Shown: positions 1 through 11,953 of the stretch, one piece after another
Numbering within the stretch: position 1 is the first letter of the stretch
Layout of the letters: each line of letters starts with the position of its first letter
The notes under the pieces: generated by a model
The model's database searches: none
Told to the model about the DNA's origin: nothing
The model's input: the letters and a program-made list of their open reading frames with translations, nothing else
Program-made: the position numbers and the translations under genes
From: a virus
Taxonomy: Duplodnaviria > Heunggongvirae > Uroviricota > Caudoviricetes
Direction: 5' to 3' (one strand)
Length of the DNA: 11,953 nucleotides
Virus record (IMG/VR): IMGVR_UViG_2645727563_000006
Span: 1 to 11,953 of that record

Positions 1-1122
1 CCCCGCCGCTAAAATGTTACGAGCGCCGTTTACATCGGCGTTCGCTGTATATCCACATACCTGGCATCTGAATTTACTTTGTGACAGGCGATTTTCTTTC
101 GCGGTATGACCACAGCACGCGCAACGCTGGCTTGTGTACGCTGGCGGCACTGCCAGTACCTGACCGCCATGCCAGAGCTGCTTATACTCAAGCTGGCGGC
201 GCATTTCATACCAGCCCTGATCCAGTATCGAACGGTTTAAACCTGATTTTGCCCGGACATTGCGACCCGGCTGACTTATCGTACCCGCCGCTGACTTTGA
301 CATGTGTTTAACCTTCAAATCCTCAATGACAATCATTGCGTGGTTTTTGCTGATGATCGTTGTGACTTTATGAAGGTAGTCTCTGCGGATATTTGCGATA
401 CGGGAGTGCAGTTGCTGTATTTTGCGTTTCTGCTTCTGCCAGTTGTTGCTGAATCTGACCTTGCGGCTTAACTGGCGCTGAAGTCTCGCCAGCTTTTTCT
501 GGTTTTTCTGGAAACTGTTTACAGGCTCAAAGACTGTGCCATCTGACAGCGTGGCGAGTTTAGCCACGCCAGCATCCAGTCCGACCATTGATACTGAAGG
601 GTGAACAGGAGTGGATACCTCTCTTTCTGTCTGAATACTGATGTACCACTTACCGCAGGACTGGCTGACAGTGACATTTTTCACAACACCCGTGACCTGA
701 CGGCTATTCCGGTAGCGCATCCAGCCAAGTTTCGGCAGAAAAATACGGCTGTTTTCCTGATCGAGCTTAACGCCCTGCGGGTAGCGGAATGCATCATTCT
801 GTCCCCGCTTTTTGAATCGGGGAAAAGCAGCCCGATTCTGGAAGAAGTTTTTGTAAGCCCGCTCAAGGTCTTTCAGTGACTGTTGCAATGGCTGTGAGGG
901 AGAATCTTTAAGCCATTCGGTTTCAGTGTCTTTTTTCCACTCAACCAACCAGGAAGCCATTTTCGTGTAAGGGATGTATTTTTTACCGGCCTCATGATTC
1001 TCATTCTGAAGCGCCAGAGCACGATTGAAAACGAAACGACATGCGCCTGCGAAGCGCCTCATTTCACGCTCCTGTTGACCATCTGGTCTTAATCGGAATT
1101 TGAATGACACCTGTTGTTTCAT
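1..1122 (-). CDS. tnpB: IS200/IS605-family TnpB (OrfB) RNA-guided-endonuclease-like protein; 3' end runs off the window
   Basis: Open minus-strand frame from ATG at 1122-1120 to position 1 (374 codons; absent from the ORF track because it is edge-truncated). Translation begins [20 protein letters not shown] and contains RuvC-I-like GLDAGV, RuvC-II-like IVIEDL, a CxxC...CxxC zinc finger (CACCGH...CQVCGY) and ADVNGARNI, the arrangement typical of TnpB. No obvious Shine-Dalgarno precedes the ATG. Confidence 0.85.
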
Positions 1123-1169
1123 GTCACTATTTTAAGCAAAAATAGCCGGGAGGAAAACTGTGCCTTATA

Positions 1170-1193
1170 TCCCCACTATGAGGAGCGTGGGGA
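1170..1193 (-). repeat. Subterminal imperfect palindrome (TCCCCAC / 10-nt loop / GTGGGGA), candidate IS left-end hairpin
   Basis: Direct reading: TCCCCAC at 1170-1176 and GTGGGGA at 1187-1193 are exact reverse complements; the position upstream of tnpB fits the ssDNA hairpins of IS200/IS605 ends. Confidence 0.5.
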
Positions 1194-1221
1194 GCGGCAC
1201 ATTGGATAAGGCGTAACAGGG

Positions 1222-4209
1222 ATGAGCTTAAGCGATCAGGTGGTTATGGCCACCAGCATAGAAACGCTGATCGAGCTGCTAAAGAACCTGCCCGATTACG
1301 GGCGGGTTTCGTATGTGGTGACAGCGAAGGGAGACGAGGTAAAAACGGCGTTTGATATCGTCGATGCCTCAGCTCTTTTGGTATCCAATACTCTGGATGG
1401 GAAAATTAATCCAGACTATCCCCAGGAACTTCAGCCGCGCGATCGGACCCGCGCATCCAGCCTTCTTCAGGTTAACCAGATATCCAAGGATTTGCGTCCT
1501 GCCCAGCTTACCGATTCCGGTTTATCCAGCCATGGTGCGCCAATAATTGGTGAGGACAATGCCGTTGAGTCAGGTAATGGGCGGACCATGGGGATCATTA
1601 AAGCCTATCAGGACGGTAATGCGGATCGGTATCGGGAGTACCTGATTGAACATGCGACCGAATTCGGCATACGGCCTGAAAAGGTTGAATCAATGACGGC
1701 TCCGGTACTGGTGCGCCGCCGGTTAACGAAGGTTGACCGTGTTCAGTTTGCCAAGGACTCAAATATTTCTGATCTCCAGGAAATGGCAGCCAGTGAAAAG
1801 GCTTTTGTTGATGCCGACAGCATAACACCGGCGATGATGGCGTTGTTTAACCCGTCAGAAAGTGGAGATCTGCTTAGCCGCAGTAATGACGCGTTTATTC
1901 GCGGATTCATGACGCAAGTTGGTGCCACACAGGCGGCTGGCCTTGTAACTGAAGATGGGCGACCAACACGGCAACTTGTTGACCGTATACAAAACGCGAT
2001 CTTTGCCAAGGCATATAAGGATGCGCGCCTGGTAAGGATGGTTGCAGAAGAACCTGATCCGGATATGCGTAATGTTCTGACGGCGCTTAATGCGGCAGCC
2101 AATGATTTTGTCCAGATGCAGGCTTTATCAGGAGAAGCGCACAAGCAGGCTGTGACAACTATTGTTGATGGCATTGAGACAGCGGATAGCCTCGATAAAA
2201 AGGCGCTGGCGGCATTGAAAGATGCGGTAGACCTGGTAAGGCAATCGAAGGAGTCAGGCCAGCATATTACCGATGTTATTGCTCAGGGGGATATGTTCAG
2301 CGAAACGGCCCCGGAAGTGAAAGCACTCGCGTTGTTCATCGTCGCGAATAACCGTAGCGCGAAGCGTATGGCCACCGCCTTTAAGTTGATGGCGCAACGT
2401 ATCAATGATGAGTTACAGCACCAGGGCCAGGCGCTCGGGGATATGTTTGGCGGCGGCGATGTGTCGTTACAGGATATCCTTCGCCAGGTGTCTCAGGAAC
2501 TGGAATACGAAGGCATGCAAGGGATATCCGGCGGTCTTTTCGAGTCCGTTTCCGGCGGTAGTTACAACGGTGTTGCTCCGTATACCAGTTTGCTATTACA
2601 TCGGGCATCCGGCATCAAAGACATTATTCATCTGATCAGGCTGCTTTCCCGCACAGATCCCCAGGATGAACAGCTTGTACAAGTGCTTGCGCATTTTGTT
2701 CGAATGCCTGTTGCCGACGTGAAAAAATGGTGCCGATTATTCGGTATCAGCAATTCGTTACTTCGCGGCTTGTTAAATCACGCATCCTCCCTTGGGCGCG
2801 ATGGCTTTGACGAGATAGCGCAGGCGATAAAAAACGGAGATATGCCACCAGCTATTGACTGGTTTTCCATTCGCCCAACCAGGGTGAAAGCATTCCTTAG
2901 CGCGGCGCATTTGGCATCACCATTGGCAGAAATGGTTCAGAGGTTGTCGCTCATATTCACAGACCATACCGCGTTGGGTGATCTGACTCTGGACGAGATG
3001 AAAGAAGCCTCCATTCAGTGGGCCGATCAACAAAATGAGGTTAACTCAGACTTCTTGCCAGCATTCAGGAAGGCCGTTAGTAAAGCTGATGATGCCCGTG
3101 GAATTCTGAAGGCATTTAAGGCATTGCAAAGTCAGGTTAATAAACATGTCGGTGATATCGATGGGGTAACGGCGGAAGGCAGGGATATCCTTAAAGAGCA
3201 CGGCATAACGCCAGAGTTTATTGATGAGATCAGGACTGATATGCAGCGTGAGGTCGTATCGTCCCTGCAAATTGTAGCCAGGGCGTTGGCGGATGCTAAT
3301 CCGAAGAGTGCGGCCATTGTTAACCGGGTTATTGGTGATATTGAAGCATCGGAGGGCATGGGGGCGCTGAAACTCTTCCTTTCGCGAGCGTTTAATCCTA
3401 ACGGCAATATTCTCCCTGGCATTATTGGTGAGGCTAAAAAGTATGTCAGTGAAGAAGAACTTGAGCAGCTTGACCAACTACTTAAGCGATTCTCATACAA
3501 CCCGCAGACACGCTGGCAAATGAATCAGCGAAGTATGGGTTCGGTCCACGAGAAAGTGTTATCTGCCATGAACAGTGCGATCGCAAACTCATCCGTATCT
3601 GAAGAAAAAGCTCTTGAGTGGGCCGACTCTTTTATCACGGAAGAAGTGGAAGAAGCCCGCGCTGGACAGAATGGTGGGATAGACCTGCGCAAGGAACTTG
3701 CTGATATTTATCGCCTGACCGGCGGTAAAATTTCGACCTTATCAAAGGTGGTTCACCACAAGGGAAGGGCATATGCAAATCTTAATGGTGTTGTTGCTGT
3801 CAATTTGAACGATGAAAATGCAAGTGCACTGTGGCACGAGCTGGGTCATCATCTTGAGTACAGTAACCCTGGTTTGTTAGAGAAAGCCCGGTCATTCCTG
3901 AAGGCCAATGTTGAAGGGGATAAGCCATCTTTCGTTAATATCGGTGGGCGTGGCAAGCCTGAATGGTGCTTCAGATCTCGATTGAGTAATATTTATATGG
4001 CGAAGGTATACCCGCCAGTCTCAGTGAGTAACTCCGGGAAAATTCGGCAGAAATCACCGACCATTTCCAAAACGTCAGCAACGGAAGTATTCTCTATGGC
4101 TCTTCAGTTGTATCATGACAAAGAGGCCGCTGCCGCATCACTGATGAATGGTGACGGATTGCTGGAACTGTTATTAGGTGTGGCAAAGGAGCTAAATAAT
4201 GCAGATTAA
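1222..4209 (+). CDS. Large 995-aa protein with a C-terminal HExxH (HELGHH) zincin-like metallopeptidase motif; candidate virion-associated polyvalent or anti-restriction (Dar/Ddr-class) protein
   Basis: Single 2988-nt ORF. WHELGHHLEY motif near residue 870. N-terminal QPRDRTRA is weakly reminiscent of ParB-like GxRRxRA, a low-confidence resemblance. ATG at 1222 has a poorly spaced RBS; an in-frame ATG at 1246 preceded by AGGTGG is an alternative start. Size and neighbourhood resemble the P1 darA-operon large protein (DdrB-like), from memory only. Confidence 0.8.
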   Translation: MSLSDQVVMATSIETLIELLKNLPDYGRVSYVVTAKGDEVKTAFDIVDASALLVSNTLDGKINPDYPQELQPRDRTRASSLLQVNQISKDLRPAQLTDSGLSSHGAPIIGEDNAVESGNGRTMGIIKAYQDGNADRYREYLIEHATEFGIRPEKVESMTAPVLVRRRLTKVDRVQFAKDSNISDLQEMAASEKAFVDADSITPAMMALFNPSESGDLLSRSNDAFIRGFMTQVGATQAAGLVTEDGRPTRQLVDRIQNAIFAKAYKDARLVRMVAEEPDPDMRNVLTALNAAANDFVQMQALSGEAHKQAVTTIVDGIETADSLDKKALAALKDAVDLVRQSKESGQHITDVIAQGDMFSETAPEVKALALFIVANNRSAKRMATAFKLMAQRINDELQHQGQALGDMFGGGDVSLQDILRQVSQELEYEGMQGISGGLFESVSGGSYNGVAPYTSLLLHRASGIKDIIHLIRLLSRTDPQDEQLVQVLAHFVRMPVADVKKWCRLFGISNSLLRGLLNHASSLGRDGFDEIAQAIKNGDMPPAIDWFSIRPTRVKAFLSAAHLASPLAEMVQRLSLIFTDHTALGDLTLDEMKEASIQWADQQNEVNSDFLPAFRKAVSKADDARGILKAFKALQSQVNKHVGDIDGVTAEGRDILKEHGITPEFIDEIRTDMQREVVSSLQIVARALADANPKSAAIVNRVIGDIEASEGMGALKLFLSRAFNPNGNILPGIIGEAKKYVSEEELEQLDQLLKRFSYNPQTRWQMNQRSMGSVHEKVLSAMNSAIANSSVSEEKALEWADSFITEEVEEARAGQNGGIDLRKELADIYRLTGGKISTLSKVVHHKGRAYANLNGVVAVNLNDENASALWHELGHHLEYSNPGLLEKARSFLKANVEGDKPSFVNIGGRGKPEWCFRSRLSNIYMAKVYPPVSVSNSGKIRQKSPTISKTSATEVFSMALQLYHDKEAAAASLMNGDGLLELLLGVAKELNNAD

Positions 4210-4507
4210 AATCGCAGCGCCATTAGGCGGAGATGCCATTATCGAATTTGATGATAATGAAGAAGTTTCCGGGCGTTTAAGCATTATCTCCGGTGACATT
4301 ACCGAGGACATGATCGCTGAAGCCATAGCTGGAGCAAATCCCAATAGCTATATGGGATTCGTTAACACCCTTGATGCTCCCGCAAGTGATGTTCTCCGAA
4401 CGCTGCATCTTTACGCTGGCTGGTTTGTTGATTGGCCAGCAGTAGATGGTGGCGATGAGGACGACGACGATGATTTTGGTGATCATGTAGACCAGATCGT
4501 ATATTGA
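4199..4507 (+). CDS. 102-aa highly acidic protein, translationally coupled to the upstream 995-aa gene; function unknown (candidate DNA-mimic, immunity or partner protein)
   Basis: ATG at 4199 overlaps the upstream stop by 11 nt. The product is rich in Asp/Glu with a C-terminal acidic tract DGGDEDDDDDFGD. Followed directly by a strong terminator. Confidence 0.65.
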   Translation: MQIKIAAPLGGDAIIEFDDNEEVSGRLSIISGDITEDMIAEAIAGANPNSYMGFVNTLDAPASDVLRTLHLYAGWFVDWPAVDGGDEDDDDDFGDHVDQIVY

Positions 4508-4510
4508 AGA

Positions 4511-4539
4511 AATCCCGCCAATCGGCGGGATTTTTTTTT
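4511..4539. terminator. Rho-independent terminator between convergent genes
   Basis: 9-bp GC-rich stem AATCCCGCC / loop AATC / GGCGGGATT followed by a run of nine T on the plus strand; an A-run precedes it, so it may also act on the convergent minus-strand gene. Confidence 0.8.
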
Positions 4540-5500
4540 AATCGCTTTCCACTTCTTCCGTAGTGTTTTCTTGCAGTTCTGTTAATGCAGCACGACACAG
4601 GCTCCGGGCATTGGCTATAGCCACACTTTTGACTTCATCCGTCATCGTGCAGGTAATGTACTGATCGAGTTCTTCAGCGCGGATGATGCTTTTGCCAATC
4701 AGAAACTGTATTTGCCAGAGCAGATCAGCATCCATAATCAGAATTTCTGCCGGGCCTTCAGGACCAGCCGGGAAGGAAACATAAGACTGTTTGCCCAGGC
4801 CGATAACTCGACAACTTGCTTCAAGAATTGCGCGATTGAGGTCTGACTTTGTAACTGATACAGGTTGATTTTCACCTGCGATTACGCCGTTGACATGGAT
4901 GTGGAATGGCATGTAGCTTGAAATTCGCTCTACTTTCCATACGCCAGCAAGCGATCCTTCATGCAGCACAATGGGGGTAACCGCGAGTTTCATCTCACCA
5001 TATAACTGCTGGCAGATAGCTGGATTGCTGAATACATCCAAAGGTTCACACTCAAACAGCGGCGCAATCTGTATGAGGTCCATCATGGTCATACCAGGGG
5101 TACGAGCAGTAATGAATCTGCGCATGCCAGTATCCATTGTGCGCCAGATAGCTACACCATGCTTTTTGCTCACTTCTTCAGTAAAGCCAAGGTGGCACAT
5201 GATGGTTTTTTCGATAGCCAGATCAGAGATAGAAACCTTTTCGCCAGGTACACCATCATTATTGATGGTCACTTCGACACTCTGGCCATTACGCAGGCGG
5301 TATTGAATTGTTTTAGTATTTTGTGCTGTCATAGTCTTTTCTCTGCTTAAAAACTGATGTATTGCGCCTTCAGGTGGGTCAGGAATGTTTTCCCACCAGC
5401 GAAAGCAATATCTCGGGGTGTTCTTTTCGTGAAAAGCGCGTGCCATTGCCAACTTTGGCGTTTTTTTGCGAGTTCGTGCTTTTGTCGGCGTCTTGACCAC
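4538..5500 (-). CDS. Hypothetical protein downstream of ssb, 264-320 aa depending on start; no motif recognised
   Basis: Long minus-strand ORF. The ORF-track start at 5500 is GTG with a Lys/Arg/Thr/Pro-rich 56-codon extension; the first ATG is at 5332-5330 (MTAQNTKTIQYRL...) with a weak purine-rich RBS. Start is ambiguous. Confidence 0.6.
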   Translation of the reverse strand: MVKTPTKARTRKKTPKLAMARAFHEKNTPRYCFRWWENIPDPPEGAIHQFLSREKTMTAQNTKTIQYRLRNGQSVEVTINNDGVPGEKVSISDLAIEKTIMCHLGFTEEVSKKHGVAIWRTMDTGMRRFITARTPGMTMMDLIQIAPLFECEPLDVFSNPAICQQLYGEMKLAVTPIVLHEGSLAGVWKVERISSYMPFHIHVNGVIAGENQPVSVTKSDLNRAILEASCRVIGLGKQSYVSFPAGPEGPAEILIMDADLLWQIQFLIGKSIIRAEELDQYITCTMTDEVKSVAIANARSLCRAALTELQENTTEEVESD

Positions 5501-5534
5501 CGCTTTTCTTTCAGTCGTTTTTTACTCATAAACT

Positions 5535-6023
5535 CTAAAACGGAATATCGTCGTCAAAGTCCATTGGAGGTTCGTTATTGGCGTTGCTCTGAGGTTTACC
5601 GCCACCACTGTATTGCTGGTGGTTTTGAGGTTGGTTTGATTGCCCCCAGCCATTTGAGGACTGTGAATCGTCACGGCGAGCGCCGATCATTTGCATGGTG
5701 CCGCCCTGGCTGACGATAATTTCCGTCGTGTAACGTTCTACACCGACGTCATCTGTCCACTTACGGGTTTTAAGTTTCCCTTCGATGTAGACCTGAGAAC
5801 CTTTTCGTAAATACTCACTCGCAATTTCAGCAAGTTTTCCGAACAAAACGACTTTATGCCATTCTGTCTGCTCTTTCTGTTGGCCCGTTTGCTTGTCGCG
5901 CCATGATTCATTCGTTGCGATGCTGAGTCTTCCGACAGCGCCGCCATTTGGTATATACCTGATCTCCGGGTCTTGCCCCAGGGTACCAATCAGGATGACT
6001 TTGTTTACACCGCGTTGTGCCAC
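5535..6023 (-). CDS. ssb: Single-stranded DNA-binding protein
   Basis: Translation [23 protein letters not shown]... has an OB-fold SSB N-terminus, a Gly/Gln/Asn-rich linker and the canonical acidic C-terminal tail [11 protein letters not shown] start at 6023 with AGGT upstream. Confidence 0.95.
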
Positions 6024-6042
6024 TTATCTTACCTAATAAAAT

Positions 6043-6059
6043 AAATTAATTAGAGCAAT
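6043..6059 (-). promoter_or_regulatory. P1 C1-repressor-operator-like 17-mer (ATTGCTCTAATTAATTT, 16/17 to remembered consensus ATTGCTCTAATAAATTT) in the ssb-lyz divergent intergenic region
   Basis: Read directly on the minus strand; lies about 20 bp upstream of the ssb start codon. The consensus is recalled from P1 literature, not looked up. Confidence 0.5.
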
Positions 6060-6083
6060 AATGTATATCTTTGAAACGTAGCT

Positions 6084-6102
6084 AACAAGTGATTTGCATT
6101 AT
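6084..6102 (+). promoter_or_regulatory. Candidate late-type promoter element upstream of lyz: AACAAGTGA box plus CATTAT -10-like hexamer
   Basis: AACAAGTGA at 6084-6092 and CATTAT at 6097-6102, about 90 nt upstream of the lyz ATG; shares its 9-mer with the prt upstream region. Confidence 0.3.
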
Positions 6103-6192
6103 CCTGTGCCTTCTAAAGGGATCGAGTCAGTCGGTATTGGCTGTGAATGGGTGTTTGTCCTGGAGCGTAAAAAATTCGCTTATGAGGTCTTT

Positions 6193-6750
6193 ATGAAGGG
6201 AAAAACAGCCGCAGGAGGCGGTGCAATTTGCGCTATCGCGGTGATGATTACCATCGTGATGGGTAATGGCAATGTGCGAACCAACCAGGCTGGGCTTGAG
6301 CTGATTGGTAACGCTGAAGGTTGCCGACGTGATCCATACATGTGCCCGGCAGGGGTATGGACTGACGGGATCGGTAATACACACGGGGTAACGCCGGGTG
6401 TGCGAAAAACAGACCAGCAAATCGCCGCTGATTGGGAAAAGAATATCCTGATCGCTGAACGCTGTATTAATCAGCACTTCCGGGGCAAAGACATGCCCGA
6501 TAATGCCTTCAGTGCAATGACAAGCGCGGCATTCAATATGGGATGCAATAGCTTACGGACCTACTACAGCAAAGCGCGAGGCATGCGAGTAGAAACGTCC
6601 ATCCACAAGTGGGCGCAGAAAGGGGAATGGGTGAATATGTGTAACCATCTCCCTGATTTCGTGAACAGTAACGGCGTCCCCCTGCCCGGGTTAAAGATTC
6701 GCCGTGAAGAAGAACGCCAGCTTTGCCTGACGGGGCTTGTCAATGAATAA
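6193..6750 (+). CDS. lyz: SAR (signal-arrest-release) endolysin, T4-type lysozyme fold, 185 aa; matches the organisation of P1 Lyz
   Basis: ATG at 6193 preceded by GAGG. N-terminal Gly/Ala-rich weakly hydrophobic segment MKGKTAAGGGAICAIAVMITIVMG (SAR domain) carrying Cys13, then Glu42, Cys44 and Cys51 (NAEGCRRDPYMC) at the positions described for P1 Lyz disulfide-isomerisation control. The ORF-track start at 6094 is an upstream extension. Confidence 0.93.
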   Translation: MKGKTAAGGGAICAIAVMITIVMGNGNVRTNQAGLELIGNAEGCRRDPYMCPAGVWTDGIGNTHGVTPGVRKTDQQIAADWEKNILIAERCINQHFRGKDMPDNAFSAMTSAAFNMGCNSLRTYYSKARGMRVETSIHKWAQKGEWVNMCNHLPDFVNSNGVPLPGLKIRREEERQLCLTGLVNE

Positions 6751-6994
6751 ACTCCGGCAGCTCCGCCGACTTTCGACAATGAAGTTATCGCTGGCAGCGA
6801 TAGTTTTCGACTCGATTTTCATGGCGGTATATGTGCTTAATGAAACGTGGCCACTGGAACCGCTATTGTATGCCGGGCTTCGGCTGTGCCTGACTTTTTT
6901 GAGCATGGCTGCGAGATTGATGCAGCAGAAAGAAACCGCTTCAGATTGTCCACGCCGCGCGGTGCGCAAATATATGGCACGCAGGCGAAGATGA
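6743..6994 (+). CDS. Putative small membrane protein (83 aa, two hydrophobic segments, Arg-rich C-terminus) overlapping the lyz stop; candidate lysis-associated protein, doubtful
   Basis: ATG at 6743 overlaps the lyz stop (6748-6750) with GGGG 7 nt upstream. Segments LSLAAIVFDSIFMAVYVL and LLYAGLRLCLTFLSMAARLM; C-terminus RRAVRKYMARRRR. No homology can be asserted. Confidence 0.3.
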   Translation: MNKLRQLRRLSTMKLSLAAIVFDSIFMAVYVLNETWPLEPLLYAGLRLCLTFLSMAARLMQQKETASDCPRRAVRKYMARRRR

Positions 6995-7004
6995 TTTAAC
7001 CATT

Positions 7005-7021
7005 ATTGCTCTAATAAATTT
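7005..7021 (+). promoter_or_regulatory. C1-operator-like 17-mer ATTGCTCTAATAAATTT (17/17 to remembered P1 C1 operator consensus), probable Op51-equivalent upstream of c4-icd-ant
   Basis: Exact match to the recalled consensus; paired with an inverted copy immediately downstream. Confidence 0.6.
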
Positions 7022-7037
7022 GATTTATTAGAGCAAA
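7021..7037 (-). promoter_or_regulatory. Second C1-operator-like 17-mer in inverted orientation (TTTGCTCTAATAAATCA, 14/17), forming a near-palindrome with 7005-7021
   Basis: Reverse complement of 7021-7037 read directly; the two sites together form an AT-rich inverted repeat spanning 7005-7037. Confidence 0.5.
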
Positions 7038-7210
7038 TAACCTACCATCGAACACGGCTCTATTGATCTCATCGTCGTTCAGGCTTATAGTTCCACCGTC
7101 GTAGCAAATTCTGCGACCAGGTTTGACAGCCTGAATACGAATGCGGACAACCGCAGATTTCCGATATTGCGGTATTTTTGTGTCCGTAAACCACGTTACG
7201 CCCGAATTAT

Positions 7211-7287
7211 GGTGGGGCGTGATGGGGAGGCTTCGGCCTGCTGGTTTCATTCGTGCCAGTCTGTCAACCCTGTCACGTCCTGCCACC
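7211..7287 (+). ncRNA. c4: c4-like antisense repressor RNA of the immunity-I module (77 nt)
   Basis: 77-nt segment bounded by complementary ends GGTGG (7211-7215) / CCACC (7283-7287) with an internal AGGC-TTCG-GCCT hairpin. It contains CATTCGT (7248-7254) and CTGTCAA (7261-7267), complementary to ACGAATG (7320-7326, abutting the icd RBS) and TTGACAG (7291-7297) downstream, in the order expected for antisense pairing. Length and position match the P1/P7 c4 RNA; exact ends not verifiable here. Confidence 0.5.
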
Positions 7288-7290
7288 TGT

Positions 7291-7329
7291 TTGACAGCGG
7301 GTCGCAGGTTGTTAAACCTACGAATGAGG
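7291..7329 (+). promoter_or_regulatory. Candidate c4 target sites (b'-like TTGACAG and a'-like ACGAATG) in the icd-ant leader, adjoining the icd Shine-Dalgarno
   Basis: Complementarity to the two c4-internal segments read directly; GAGG at 7326-7329 is the icd RBS. Confidence 0.45.
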
Positions 7330-7337
7330 CCGTAACT

Positions 7338-7559
7338 ATGGTTAATGCCAATCCTTGCGCACGCCCTGAATTTATCTGGCGCTTTTACTCCTGCCAGAAA
7401 CGTCACTATCACTTCGTAATTGCACCGACAGAAGATGAGGCCCGCTCTCAGCTTCCTGACGCTCCCTGCATTTTCTCTGCCCGCTTTTCCACTGATTCGC
7501 GCAACTCTCTCAGTTACTGGTGCCTCCCTGTTAACGCTTCTGCTCAGGAGGGACTATGA
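7338..7559 (+). CDS. icd: Icd-like small protein (73 aa), translationally coupled to ant
   Basis: ATG at 7338 with GAGG upstream; stop TGA overlaps the ant ATG (ATGA at 7556-7559). The ORF-track entry 7167-7559 is an N-terminal extension that would overlap the c4 RNA and is probably not translated. Confidence 0.6.
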   Translation: MVNANPCARPEFIWRFYSCQKRHYHFVIAPTEDEARSQLPDAPCIFSARFSTDSRNSLSYWCLPVNASAQEGL

Positions 7560-8647
7560 GAACGTCATTAGTCACCCGTGAAGAAATGATTGAGGCAATT
7601 GAACAGCACACATCCTGTATCAGTACCAGGGATATACCGGGTGTTATTGCCAACTACTTCATGATCACCAAACAACTTTACCGGAGAAAGGACAAGAACG
7701 CGGTTCACCGTATCCTGCTGTCTGATATCCGCGAATACCTGCTCGAACAGGGGCATCTGAATTACGCAACCGTCGCAGCCGAAGCACGCAAGGAGGCACA
7801 CAGAATGAAAGCAACTAACGTTAAATCAGAAAAAATTCATGCACCTTCAGTTCGGGAATCGGAGCTGGTGGTTGTTCAGAATCAGTCTGATGAAATTCCC
7901 GTTCTGGAATGGCTGGGAGTGCGTGTCGTAACGACCGAAACTCTTGCTAGAGGGTATAGTACCGATGAAGCCAATATTCGTAAAAATTTGTCTCGCAACT
8001 CCGATCGCTTTGAAGAAGGCAAGCATTACTATCTCTTAACCGGTTCAAAGTTAAAGGAATTTAAAAGGCTAGTGACTATTAGTCACTTGGTTAGCAAATA
8101 TACAAGTCAGGTAATTCTCTGGACAGAGCGCGGCGCTGCACGCATGTCTAAGATCGTGGACACAAATGAAGCATGGGCATTCTTTGAAAAACTGGAAGAC
8201 AGCTACTTCCGACAAAAAGAACAGCAACCGGTCTCAATTCCCCAGACGCTTCCAGAAGCTCTGCGCCTGGCTGCCGAGTTGGCAGAACAGAAAATGCAAC
8301 TGGAACAACAGCTGGTGGCCGCAGCCCCTAAAGTCGATTTTGCCGACCGGGTATCAGTGGCCAAGGGGATCCTGATTGGGAATTTTGCAAAGGTTGTTGG
8401 ACTTAAGCAAAACGCGCTGTTTGCCTGGTTACGGGAGAACGGCATCCTGATTGCGTCCGGCGGACGTAAAAATGTACCGTTTCAGCAGTACATAAATGCC
8501 GGGTATTTCACGGTGAAAGAAGTGGTGCTGGATGATGAAGATGGATACCAGATACGGTTGACGCCCCAGCTAACGGGGAAAGGCCAGCAGTGGCTGACGC
8601 GTAAACTGCTCGATGCAGGTTTATTAAAGCCTGTAGCGGCTGAGTGA
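7556..8647 (+). CDS. ant: Antirepressor Ant (Ant1, 363 aa) with nested in-frame Ant2 start at 7805 (280 aa)
   Basis: Central region VTTETLARGYSTDEANIRKNLSRNSDRFEEGKHYYLL resembles the antirepressor N-terminal (ORF6N-type) domain and the C-terminal part resembles the KilA-C/Ant C-terminal domain. A strong internal RBS AAGGAGG precedes ATG 7805, consistent with P1 Ant1/Ant2 dual products. Confidence 0.85.
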   Translation: MRTSLVTREEMIEAIEQHTSCISTRDIPGVIANYFMITKQLYRRKDKNAVHRILLSDIREYLLEQGHLNYATVAAEARKEAHRMKATNVKSEKIHAPSVRESELVVVQNQSDEIPVLEWLGVRVVTTETLARGYSTDEANIRKNLSRNSDRFEEGKHYYLLTGSKLKEFKRLVTISHLVSKYTSQVILWTERGAARMSKIVDTNEAWAFFEKLEDSYFRQKEQQPVSIPQTLPEALRLAAELAEQKMQLEQQLVAAAPKVDFADRVSVAKGILIGNFAKVVGLKQNALFAWLRENGILIASGGRKNVPFQQYINAGYFTVKEVVLDDEDGYQIRLTPQLTGKGQQWLTRKLLDAGLLKPVAAE

Positions 8648-8654
8648 TTAAATT

Positions 8655-8677
8655 AAAAAGGCGGCCTTTCGGCCGCC
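8655..8677 (-). terminator. Rho-independent terminator downstream of pro (minus strand); the hairpin may also stop ant transcription
   Basis: GGCGGCC / TTTC / GGCCGCC stem-loop at 8660-8677 preceded on the plus strand by AAAAA (8655-8659), which gives a T-run after the hairpin on the minus strand. Confidence 0.6.
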
Positions 8678-8760
8678 CGTTGAAGCAGGAACCCACCGAA
8701 ATGATTCAGGCGACAGCCTTAACGTAGCAGGAATCCACGCCCGTCAGGGCGTGGAGGGTG

Positions 8761-11491
<2,731 letters not shown>

Positions 11492-11526
11492 TTAATTAGA
11501 ATAATTCGCATCGTGTTTGAACGGAA

Positions 11527-11547
11527 ATTTAACACTAGTCACTTGTT
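11527..11547 (-). promoter_or_regulatory. Candidate late-type promoter element upstream of prt: AACAAGTGA box plus TTAAAT -10-like hexamer (minus strand)
   Basis: Minus-strand AACAAGTGA (plus 11539-11547) followed 6 nt later by TTAAAT (plus 11527-11532). The same 9-mer occurs upstream of lyz at 6084-6092, followed by CATTAT. Interpretation as an activator-dependent late promoter is inference. Confidence 0.3.
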
Positions 11548-11558
11548 AAGGATTACCA

Positions 11559-11953
11559 ATGAACAAGCTATCTATGGGGGTGTTTCGCTGTTCAAGTGTC
11601 AGCGAAATATTGAAATACATTAGGGCAATAACATCTCACCGAGCGCCGATTAAATACGGCGTGGAAAAGGTGGAAGGCAAAAGCTATGACCGACTGCGCC
11701 GTGAGGCGAATCAGAAGGCGATAGATTTGCTTAATTCGCTGGTGGACGGCGCGACACTGACAGATGAACAGCGCCAGATCCTGGCTGGGTACACCGGTGA
11801 AGGCGGCATTGGCGGGTCCGTCTCCGAATATTACACACCAAAGCCGATCGCTGAAGGTGTCTGGGAGATCATGAAGCTCTACGGCGCGGACGTAGGTAAC
11901 ACTCTGGAACCATCGGCGGGAACCGGCGTTTTTAATGAGACAAAACCGGTTGG
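11559..11953 (+). CDS. darB: N-terminal part of an N6-adenine DNA methyltransferase-domain protein, probably a large DarB-like protein; continues beyond the window
   Basis: ATG at 11559 with AAGGA RBS; open to the window end (131 codons). Contains EYYTPKP followed by LEPSAGTGVF, matching the (F/Y)(F/Y)TP plus motif-I (xxPxxGxGxF) arrangement of N6-adenine methyltransferases. Divergent from prt, as remembered for P1 darB. Absent from the ORF track because it is edge-truncated. Confidence 0.6.
   Translation, partial: MNKLSMGVFRCSSVSEILKYIRAITSHRAPIKYGVEKVEGKSYDRLRREANQKAIDLLNSLVDGATLTDEQRQILAGYTGEGGIGGSVSEYYTPKPIAEGVWEIMKLYGADVGNTLEPSAGTGVFNETKPV

Follow-up and report, generated by a model that had tools for sequence, protein, structure and literature searches.

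The insertion sequence IS609 of E. coli K-12 (insQ/ydcM and yncK) is 1748 bp long, and its tnpA pseudogene yncK is divergent from insQ. The cleavage sites of IS609 are given as 'left, TTAT; right, TCAA', IS609 or IS609-like insertions have been recorded in P1-like plasmids, and an 'IS609-like sequence' of 1338 bp is described in pSvP1 (Venturini et al., PMC6906374). For IS608 a distance of 19 nt between TTAC and the hairpin has been published (PMC3201880). In the literature on the activity of InsQ, the IS609 TnpB, we found passing mention alone and no characterisation of target cleavage by InsQ; a 2026 study has an IS609 TnpB among nine TnpBs purified for trans-cleavage screening, and the accessible part of that study gives no IS609 result.

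The window, which is the whole stretch of 11,953 nt that was analysed (positions 1–11,953 of the IMG/VR record IMGVR_UViG_2645727563_000006), begins inside a 1335-bp element that by its sequence is a tnpA-less, non-autonomous derivative of IS609 (IS200/IS605 family) and is not IS608-like. Window positions 1–1205 constitute the left 1205 nt of the element and the last 130 nt lie left of the window. We consider it very probable that the locus is such a derivative, with an intact TnpB, in the ddrA-ddrB spacer of a P1-like phage-plasmid, and the homing part of this reading is taken over from the general TnpB model. The element is ordinary and already known, as it is RefSeq-annotated, with annotation in many sequenced plasmids, and found within published P1-like phages. 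Its features and their surroundings are, in window coordinates:

1–40, minus strand: beginning of the predicted omega-RNA scaffold, a conserved 3' structure overlapping the end of the tnpB coding sequence, from the consensus fold; the rest is left of the window
1–1122, minus strand: tnpB (insQ), codons 1–374 of 402, ATG at 1122–1120, open at the window edge; from translation and Pfam
34–36, minus strand: RuvC-III aspartate D363 (NADVNGARN), by alignment to ISDra2 TnpB
55–123, minus strand: zinc finger CxxC...CxxC with C334, C337, C353 and C356, by translation and alignment; Pfam Cas12f1-like_TNB covers aa 304–370
322–324, minus strand: RuvC-II glutamate E267 (VIEDL), by alignment to ISDra2 TnpB
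574–576, minus strand: RuvC-I aspartate D183 (GLDAG), by alignment to the GVDVG motif of ISDra2 TnpB
1123–1205, minus strand: left end (LE), 83 nt from the tnpB ATG to the terminus, from filled versus empty site and LE alignment
1159–1201, minus strand: LE structure, outer stem TGTGCC/GGCACA (1201–1196 with 1164–1159) around an inner hairpin, from the DNA fold
1193–1187 with 1176–1170, minus strand: LE inner hairpin TCCCCAC-10 nt-GTGGGGA, from the DNA fold
1206–1209, minus strand: TTAT, left cleavage and target site and predicted TAM, from the empty P1 site, family copies and PMC6906374
1213–1216, minus strand: TTAC, part of the P1 ddrA-ddrB spacer (GCGTAAC in uninterrupted P1) and not an element feature
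1222–4209, plus strand: ddrB, 995 aa, ddrB-ParB domain PF18763 (1.8e-39), from Pfam and P1 annotation; downstream neighbour, outside the element

Boundaries and genomic setting of the insertion

The boundaries were obtained by comparing the filled sites of SJ46 and the E. coli MINF_9A plasmid with the empty site of P1. In uninterrupted P1 the sequence ...GAGGCAGC|ATAAGGCGTAACACGGATG comprises the ddrA stop codon TAA, a 12-nt spacer and the ddrB ATG, and the insertion point is located 3' of TTAT in the empty site GAGGCAGC|ATAAGGCG. The filled site reads ...GAGGCAGC, followed by the element (GTGACATCCTCCACG...CACATTGG) and then by ATAAGGCGTAACAGGGATG, with no target duplication. An uninterrupted P1-like genome had been proposed as the means to define the empty site, and it did so; the insertion is precise, as the preliminary description suggested, but the element does not extend to 1216 as stated there, since the similarity to P1 starts at window position 1206 and the terminus is consequently at 1205. 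In the element's own orientation TTAT flanks the left end, and the right end finishes ...GGAGGATGTCAC in relatives and should be followed by GCTGCCTC. TTAT at 1206–1209 corresponds to ATAA on the plus strand, in the former ddrA stop codon region, and TTAC is placed 7 nt outward of it and 19 nt from the foot of the LE hairpin. All six independent family copies, namely the P1-site copy, K-12 IS609 and four plasmid copies from unrelated sites, have TTAT immediately before the left end, and in the five copies other than the P1-site one the left end starts CC[AGT]GTG directly after TTAT, with no TTAC in their flanks.

The 130 nt outside the window were taken from relatives that are 100% identical over window positions 1–1300, not from the window's own source, and contain 28 codons of tnpB with the stop, followed by a hairpin-bearing right end of 43 nt that terminates in TCAC. 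The expectation that the right end and most of the omega-RNA region would lie just left of the window is borne out by these plasmids, in which the leftward extension runs through the stop to the right end without a frameshift; the omega-RNA scaffold is a prediction. The terminus GGAGGATGTCA[A/C] was present at every family right end examined. Between P1-site lineages the loop region at the top of the right-end hairpin is flipped, being CCACGCCCTTCGGGGCGTGG in SA186 and CCACACCCCGAAGGGCGTGG in the window's lineage (locus L016 versus L003, positions 2880–2900).

At the other end, the 83 nt between the left end and the tnpB ATG leave insufficient room for tnpA, as had been noticed, and the element, which had been called tnpB-only or tnpA-deleted, is an IS609 derivative missing a tnpA segment of about 430 nt. 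The left-end hairpin seen earlier is part of a DNA fold of -11.2 kcal/mol (z = -3.0). In K-12 IS609 the outer stem is GCGCC/GGCGC, so that both sides are changed relative to the window copy in a compensatory manner. A search of species-representative genomes (596 Gb) for the exact LE 19-mer CCAATGTGCCGCTCCCCAC gave 3 matches, in unrelated MAGs with no wider similarity to the locus, and about 4 are expected by chance.

The insertion lies in antisense orientation in the 12 nt that separate ddrA from ddrB in the late dar (anti-restriction) operon, and the remainder of the window has the P1 gene order hxr, ssb, lyz, pro and prt. The 995-aa gene that had been described as parted from its upstream neighbour is ddrB, and the neighbour in P1 is ddrA. 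The terminal GTGA of the element replaces the ddrA stop, GCA TAA becoming GCG TGA, which leaves the DdrA protein unchanged; a filled and an empty plasmid, one of each, carry the same DdrA protein accession. A scan of the element for promoters and terminators found nothing for tnpB beyond the expectation from shuffled sequences. Between lyz and pro, positions 6990–8765 are a variable cargo with a KilAC/ORF6N antirepressor-like gene (7556–8647), and this region is missing in the MINF_9A plasmid.

Two other plasmids carry related sequences. NZ_CP028585.2, a distant P1-like plasmid, has a related tnpB-only element of the IS609 family in the homologous ddrA-ddrB spacer (positions 1282–2620 of locus L009), where DdrA is 33% identical and the N-terminal 400 aa of DdrB are 65% identical. 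This element is co-directional with the operon and located at a different TTAT, indicating an independent insertion in the same intergenic slot. The IncY plasmid NZ_CP012491.1 has, at positions 2501–2638 of locus L015, an unannotated stretch of 138 nt between repA and parA that is 75% identical to the omega-RNA/right-end region, and this may be what remains of a right end that stands alone in the replication-partition region of P1.

TnpB and its predicted guide RNA

The minus strand of window 1–1122 has 374 stop-free codons from the ATG at 1122–1120, in a frame that is unclosed at the window edge, and the remaining two minus-strand frames over the same positions contain many stops. With the 28 further codons and the stop that follow in the plasmids identical over window 1–1300, the complete TnpB is 402 aa. 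Three Pfam domains were found, HTH_OrfB_IS605 (PF12323, 1.6e-15), OrfB_IS605 (PF01385, 4.4e-32) and Cas12f1-like_TNB (PF07282, 1.9e-24), all exceeding the Pfam curated cut-offs and arranged as in TnpB, with HTH/WED followed by OrfB_IS605 (RuvC) and the zinc-ribbon TNB. The protein aligns near full-length to the ISDra2 TnpB structures 8h1j and 8exa (E = 2.7e-51), and PGAP names the product in relatives 'RNA-guided endonuclease InsQ/TnpB family protein'. The three RuvC-like motifs and the zinc finger had been reported as apparently intact, and D183, E267 and D363 as well as all four cysteines are indeed present. From these residues it is plausible that InsQ is an active RNA-guided nuclease. Seven clustered substitutions at the second CxxC of the zinc finger (window 53–70, positions 3058–3069 of locus L003) distinguish the window, with RCQVCG, from SJ46, with VCRDCG. 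RCQVCG is the reading of K-12 insQ, and the cluster resembles the patch that gene conversion from a chromosomal IS609 would leave.

A consensus fold of ten family 3' ends gave 55 pairs, 7 of them with compensatory changes, and takes in the right-end hairpin as well as a stem-loop lying further upstream; the single-sequence RNA fold of the 3' 160 nt has z = -1.47 and is indistinguishable from shuffles. An Rfam scan of the locus gave no match to a curated omega-RNA family, and one match to RAGATH-18 just outside the window (28.1 bits, E = 0.012), which is below the gathering score of 44.9. Guide RNAs of IS607 TnpBs derive from the RAGATH-18 family (PMC11061315). Taken together, an omega-RNA-like region is plausible and partly supported.

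According to the TnpB model, which is said to go back to Karvelis and to Altae-Tran in 2021 and to Meers in 2023, the DNA that directly adjoins the right end reportedly serves as the guide, and the transposon target site as the TAM. The right-end flank GCTGCCTCTTTAATGTTGGCGGCTA equals the sequence after TTAT in empty P1, where TTAT and 25 nt were compared; it is exact in five of the seven empty genomes sampled (P1 and four of six other plasmids), the other two having one mismatch each.

In the preferred reading the single-strand peel-and-paste route placed the element 3' of TTAT, and the tnpB 3' end together with the right end would be transcribed into an omega-RNA with the flanking GCUGCCUCUUUAAUGU... 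as the guide. TnpB should in that case cut DNA where TTAT is followed by the guide sequence, the predicted target being TTAT-GCTGCCTCTTTAATGT (TTAT-GCTGCCTCTTTAATGTTGGC). The target would be the uninterrupted ddrA|ddrB junction in other P1-like genomes, or in the element's own genome after excision, and repair by recombination with a filled copy would bring the element back or spread it. Transposition would require TnpA in trans, from the full IS609 copies on most E. coli chromosomes. Sequence of the tnpA-bearing IS609 was found in 4994 of 5426 complete E. coli genomes, and a source of TnpA in trans should therefore usually be available.

Distribution, mobility and alternative readings

Over window positions 1–1300, phages SJ46 and RCS47 and vB_EcoM-813R1 show 97–98% identity, and the match is 100% in E. 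coli MINF_9A plasmid 3 and in one Salmonella plasmid. No record among those searched is identical to the window over its full length; the MINF_9A plasmid was considered as such a record and rejected, as it shows 98.6% identity and differs at 6990–8765. The same insertion, with identical junctions, orientation and size and 97–100% identity, is found in SJ46, RCS47, vB_EcoM-813R1 and many P1-like plasmids. The filled junction is present in about 64–75 of the about 460 P1-like plasmids in complete E. coli genomes (~15%) and the empty junction in about 387–397 complete E. coli genomes, and both alleles circulate together in phage-plasmids of E. coli, E. albertii and Salmonella. The 1338-bp IS609-like sequence of pSvP1 is probably the same insertion. 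Neither the SJ46 paper nor the 77-plasmid paper mentions the insertion.

The left-end type of the P1 site was found at one site only; 64 E. coli genomes carry it, as do 75 PLSDB plasmids, every one of P1-like size. At the right terminus, three lineages of the P1 site (that of L003, SJ46 and SA186) have TCAC, versus TCAA in nine other family right ends from eight distinct insertion sites. There are hairpins at both ends of the element, but its LE has no TAAAA, which precedes the hairpin in other copies, and its inner hairpin also differs from theirs. The position of TAAAA is that of the IS608 guide tetranucleotide (PMC3201880). The TCAC terminus and the LE devoid of TAAAA make mobilisation in trans doubtful, and the sequences suggest that the P1-site copy goes back to one old insertion and may have lost its mobility. 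To call it definitely immobile was rejected as too strong, given the change in the LE outer stem relative to K-12, the compensatory nature of which suggests that this end is still constrained.

One alternative goes further and takes the insertion for an inert passenger, a fixed and immobile relic whose TnpB has lost its function, with a frame that is kept intact by hitch-hiking on successful P1-like plasmids and by occasional gene conversion from chromosomal IS609. The single site and the restriction to P1-like plasmids are in line with this, and so are the two ends that deviate from the family consensus. Among P1-site copies the element has diverged by 2.2–3.5%, the darA/ddrB flanks by 1.0–1.5% and the short ddrA flank by 2.2–2.5%, and the clustered differences together with the higher divergence inside the element suggest conversion patches from other IS609 copies. 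Against a mere passenger, dN/dS is 0.23 between two P1-site copies and 0.12–0.28 for all pairs of family copies, which by this measure places tnpB under purifying selection. TnpB is also intact, with all catalytic and zinc-binding residues kept, in three P1-site lineages that differ by 29–51 substitutions within the element, and the 3' region of RNA structure is conserved. An inert passenger is on balance rather unlikely.

A second alternative makes the insertion a device of competition or drive, in which TnpB and its omega-RNA cut co-infecting or co-resident P1-like genomes that lack the insertion, and thereby exclude or convert them, to the benefit of the phage-plasmid. The exact match of the predicted guide at the TTAT-adjacent sites of most of the empty genomes sampled would be expected of such a device, although this match follows automatically from the IS200/IS605 mode of insertion and gives no evidence of selection for competition. 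The circulation of filled and empty alleles in the same hosts and species is likewise in its favour, but the proportion of filled sites is unlike that of a strong drive. In the 400 nt left of the junction, three filled plasmids are each nearer to an empty one (2–4 differences) than to another filled one (9–10 differences), a pattern that short conversion tracts would leave; P1-like plasmids are however mosaic throughout, and in this sample of 4 filled and 7 empty plasmids ordinary recombination explains the flank pattern equally well. We regard a competition or drive function as improbable.

With both flanks considered (window 1206–1221 +/- 400 nt; loci L001, L003, L016 and L018–L023), the filled allele occurs on at least three ddrA haplotypes, each closer to an empty plasmid than to other filled ones. 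In this small sample, homing, general mosaic recombination and precise excision would all produce the haplotype pattern alike.

The stronger proposal that the P1-site copy is no longer a transposon, and is kept as an RNA-guided exclusion or gene-drive device that cuts the uninterrupted ddrA|ddrB junction of rival phage-plasmids, is decidedly doubtful. The several flank haplotypes of the filled allele and the independent insertion in the distant homologous spacer would both fit with it. The filled and empty alleles with an exact predicted guide constitute a clean natural test bed, and if InsQ is active the allele pair would permit a direct test of TnpB homing in phage-plasmid competition. The practical value lies in the corrected anatomy, with the ends TTAT and TCAC, the size of 1335 bp and a ddrA stop codon that is provided by the element.

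A TldR-like nuclease-dead repressor, or a purely polar insertion that alters ddrB expression by uncoupling it from ddrA, is very improbable. Some effect on ddrB expression is likely, as 1335 nt of antisense DNA separate ddrA and ddrB compared to 12 nt in P1. The RuvC triad is however intact, unlike in TldR proteins, which are TnpB-like repressors that have lost the RuvC catalytic residues, and the putative ribosome-binding AAGG and the start codon of ddrB are untouched by the insertion. A scan of the plus strand inside the element found no convincing strong terminator.

Lastly, an IS608-like element inserted 3' of TTAC and reaching 1216, the target proposed in the preliminary description, would explain why TTAC lies at exactly the published IS608 spacing 5' of the hairpin foot (PMC3201880), but it is hardly credible, since positions 1206–1216 are present in the uninterrupted P1 spacer, where the empty site refutes it, and the five other independent copies have TTAT without TTAC; the junction is that of IS609.

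Comparison with known systems

The TnpB of the window shares the domain order and the catalytic residues with ISDra2 TnpB of Deinococcus radiodurans, and as in ISDra2 the predicted RNA extends across the 3' end of tnpB and the right end, the predicted TAM being the transposon target site. The two differ in that the TAM of ISDra2 is TTGAT and the one predicted for the window TnpB is TTAT, and in that there is no adjacent tnpA in the window element. With IS608 of Helicobacter pylori the element has in common the subterminal hairpins and a right cleavage site that follows GAAT and has its end 10 nt 3' of the hairpin foot. The left site of IS608 is however TTAC at 19 nt from the foot, whereas it is TTAT at 12–16 nt in the family of the window element, which moreover has no tnpA. 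Elements of the IS1341 type are similar in having tnpB alone between ends of the IS200/IS605 type, but by its sequence the window element is a deletion derivative of IS609 and not of the IS1341 lineage.

Sister copies with tnpB only are found at other sites (loci L008–L011), mostly on phage-like plasmids, with an LE of about 85 nt from the ATG. One of these loci, on the 65-kb plasmid NZ_CP018124.1 (positions 1–314 and 1277–2585 of locus L010), has two TnpB genes about 1 kb apart, and the second gene shares the GGAGGATGTCAA terminus but has a different, longer right-end hairpin and a different scaffold.

The closest described system is IS609 itself. Its insQ shows 94% DNA identity to the tnpB of the window and both encode 402 aa, and the target TTAT, the right terminus GGAGGATGTCA and a hairpin preceded by G[A/G]AT are shared. 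The window element is without the tnpA segment (1335 versus 1748 bp) and regains its homology to IS609 only 17 nt inside the ORF. Its first five codons and its LE hairpin are diverged, and the right terminus is TCAC where IS609 has TCAA.
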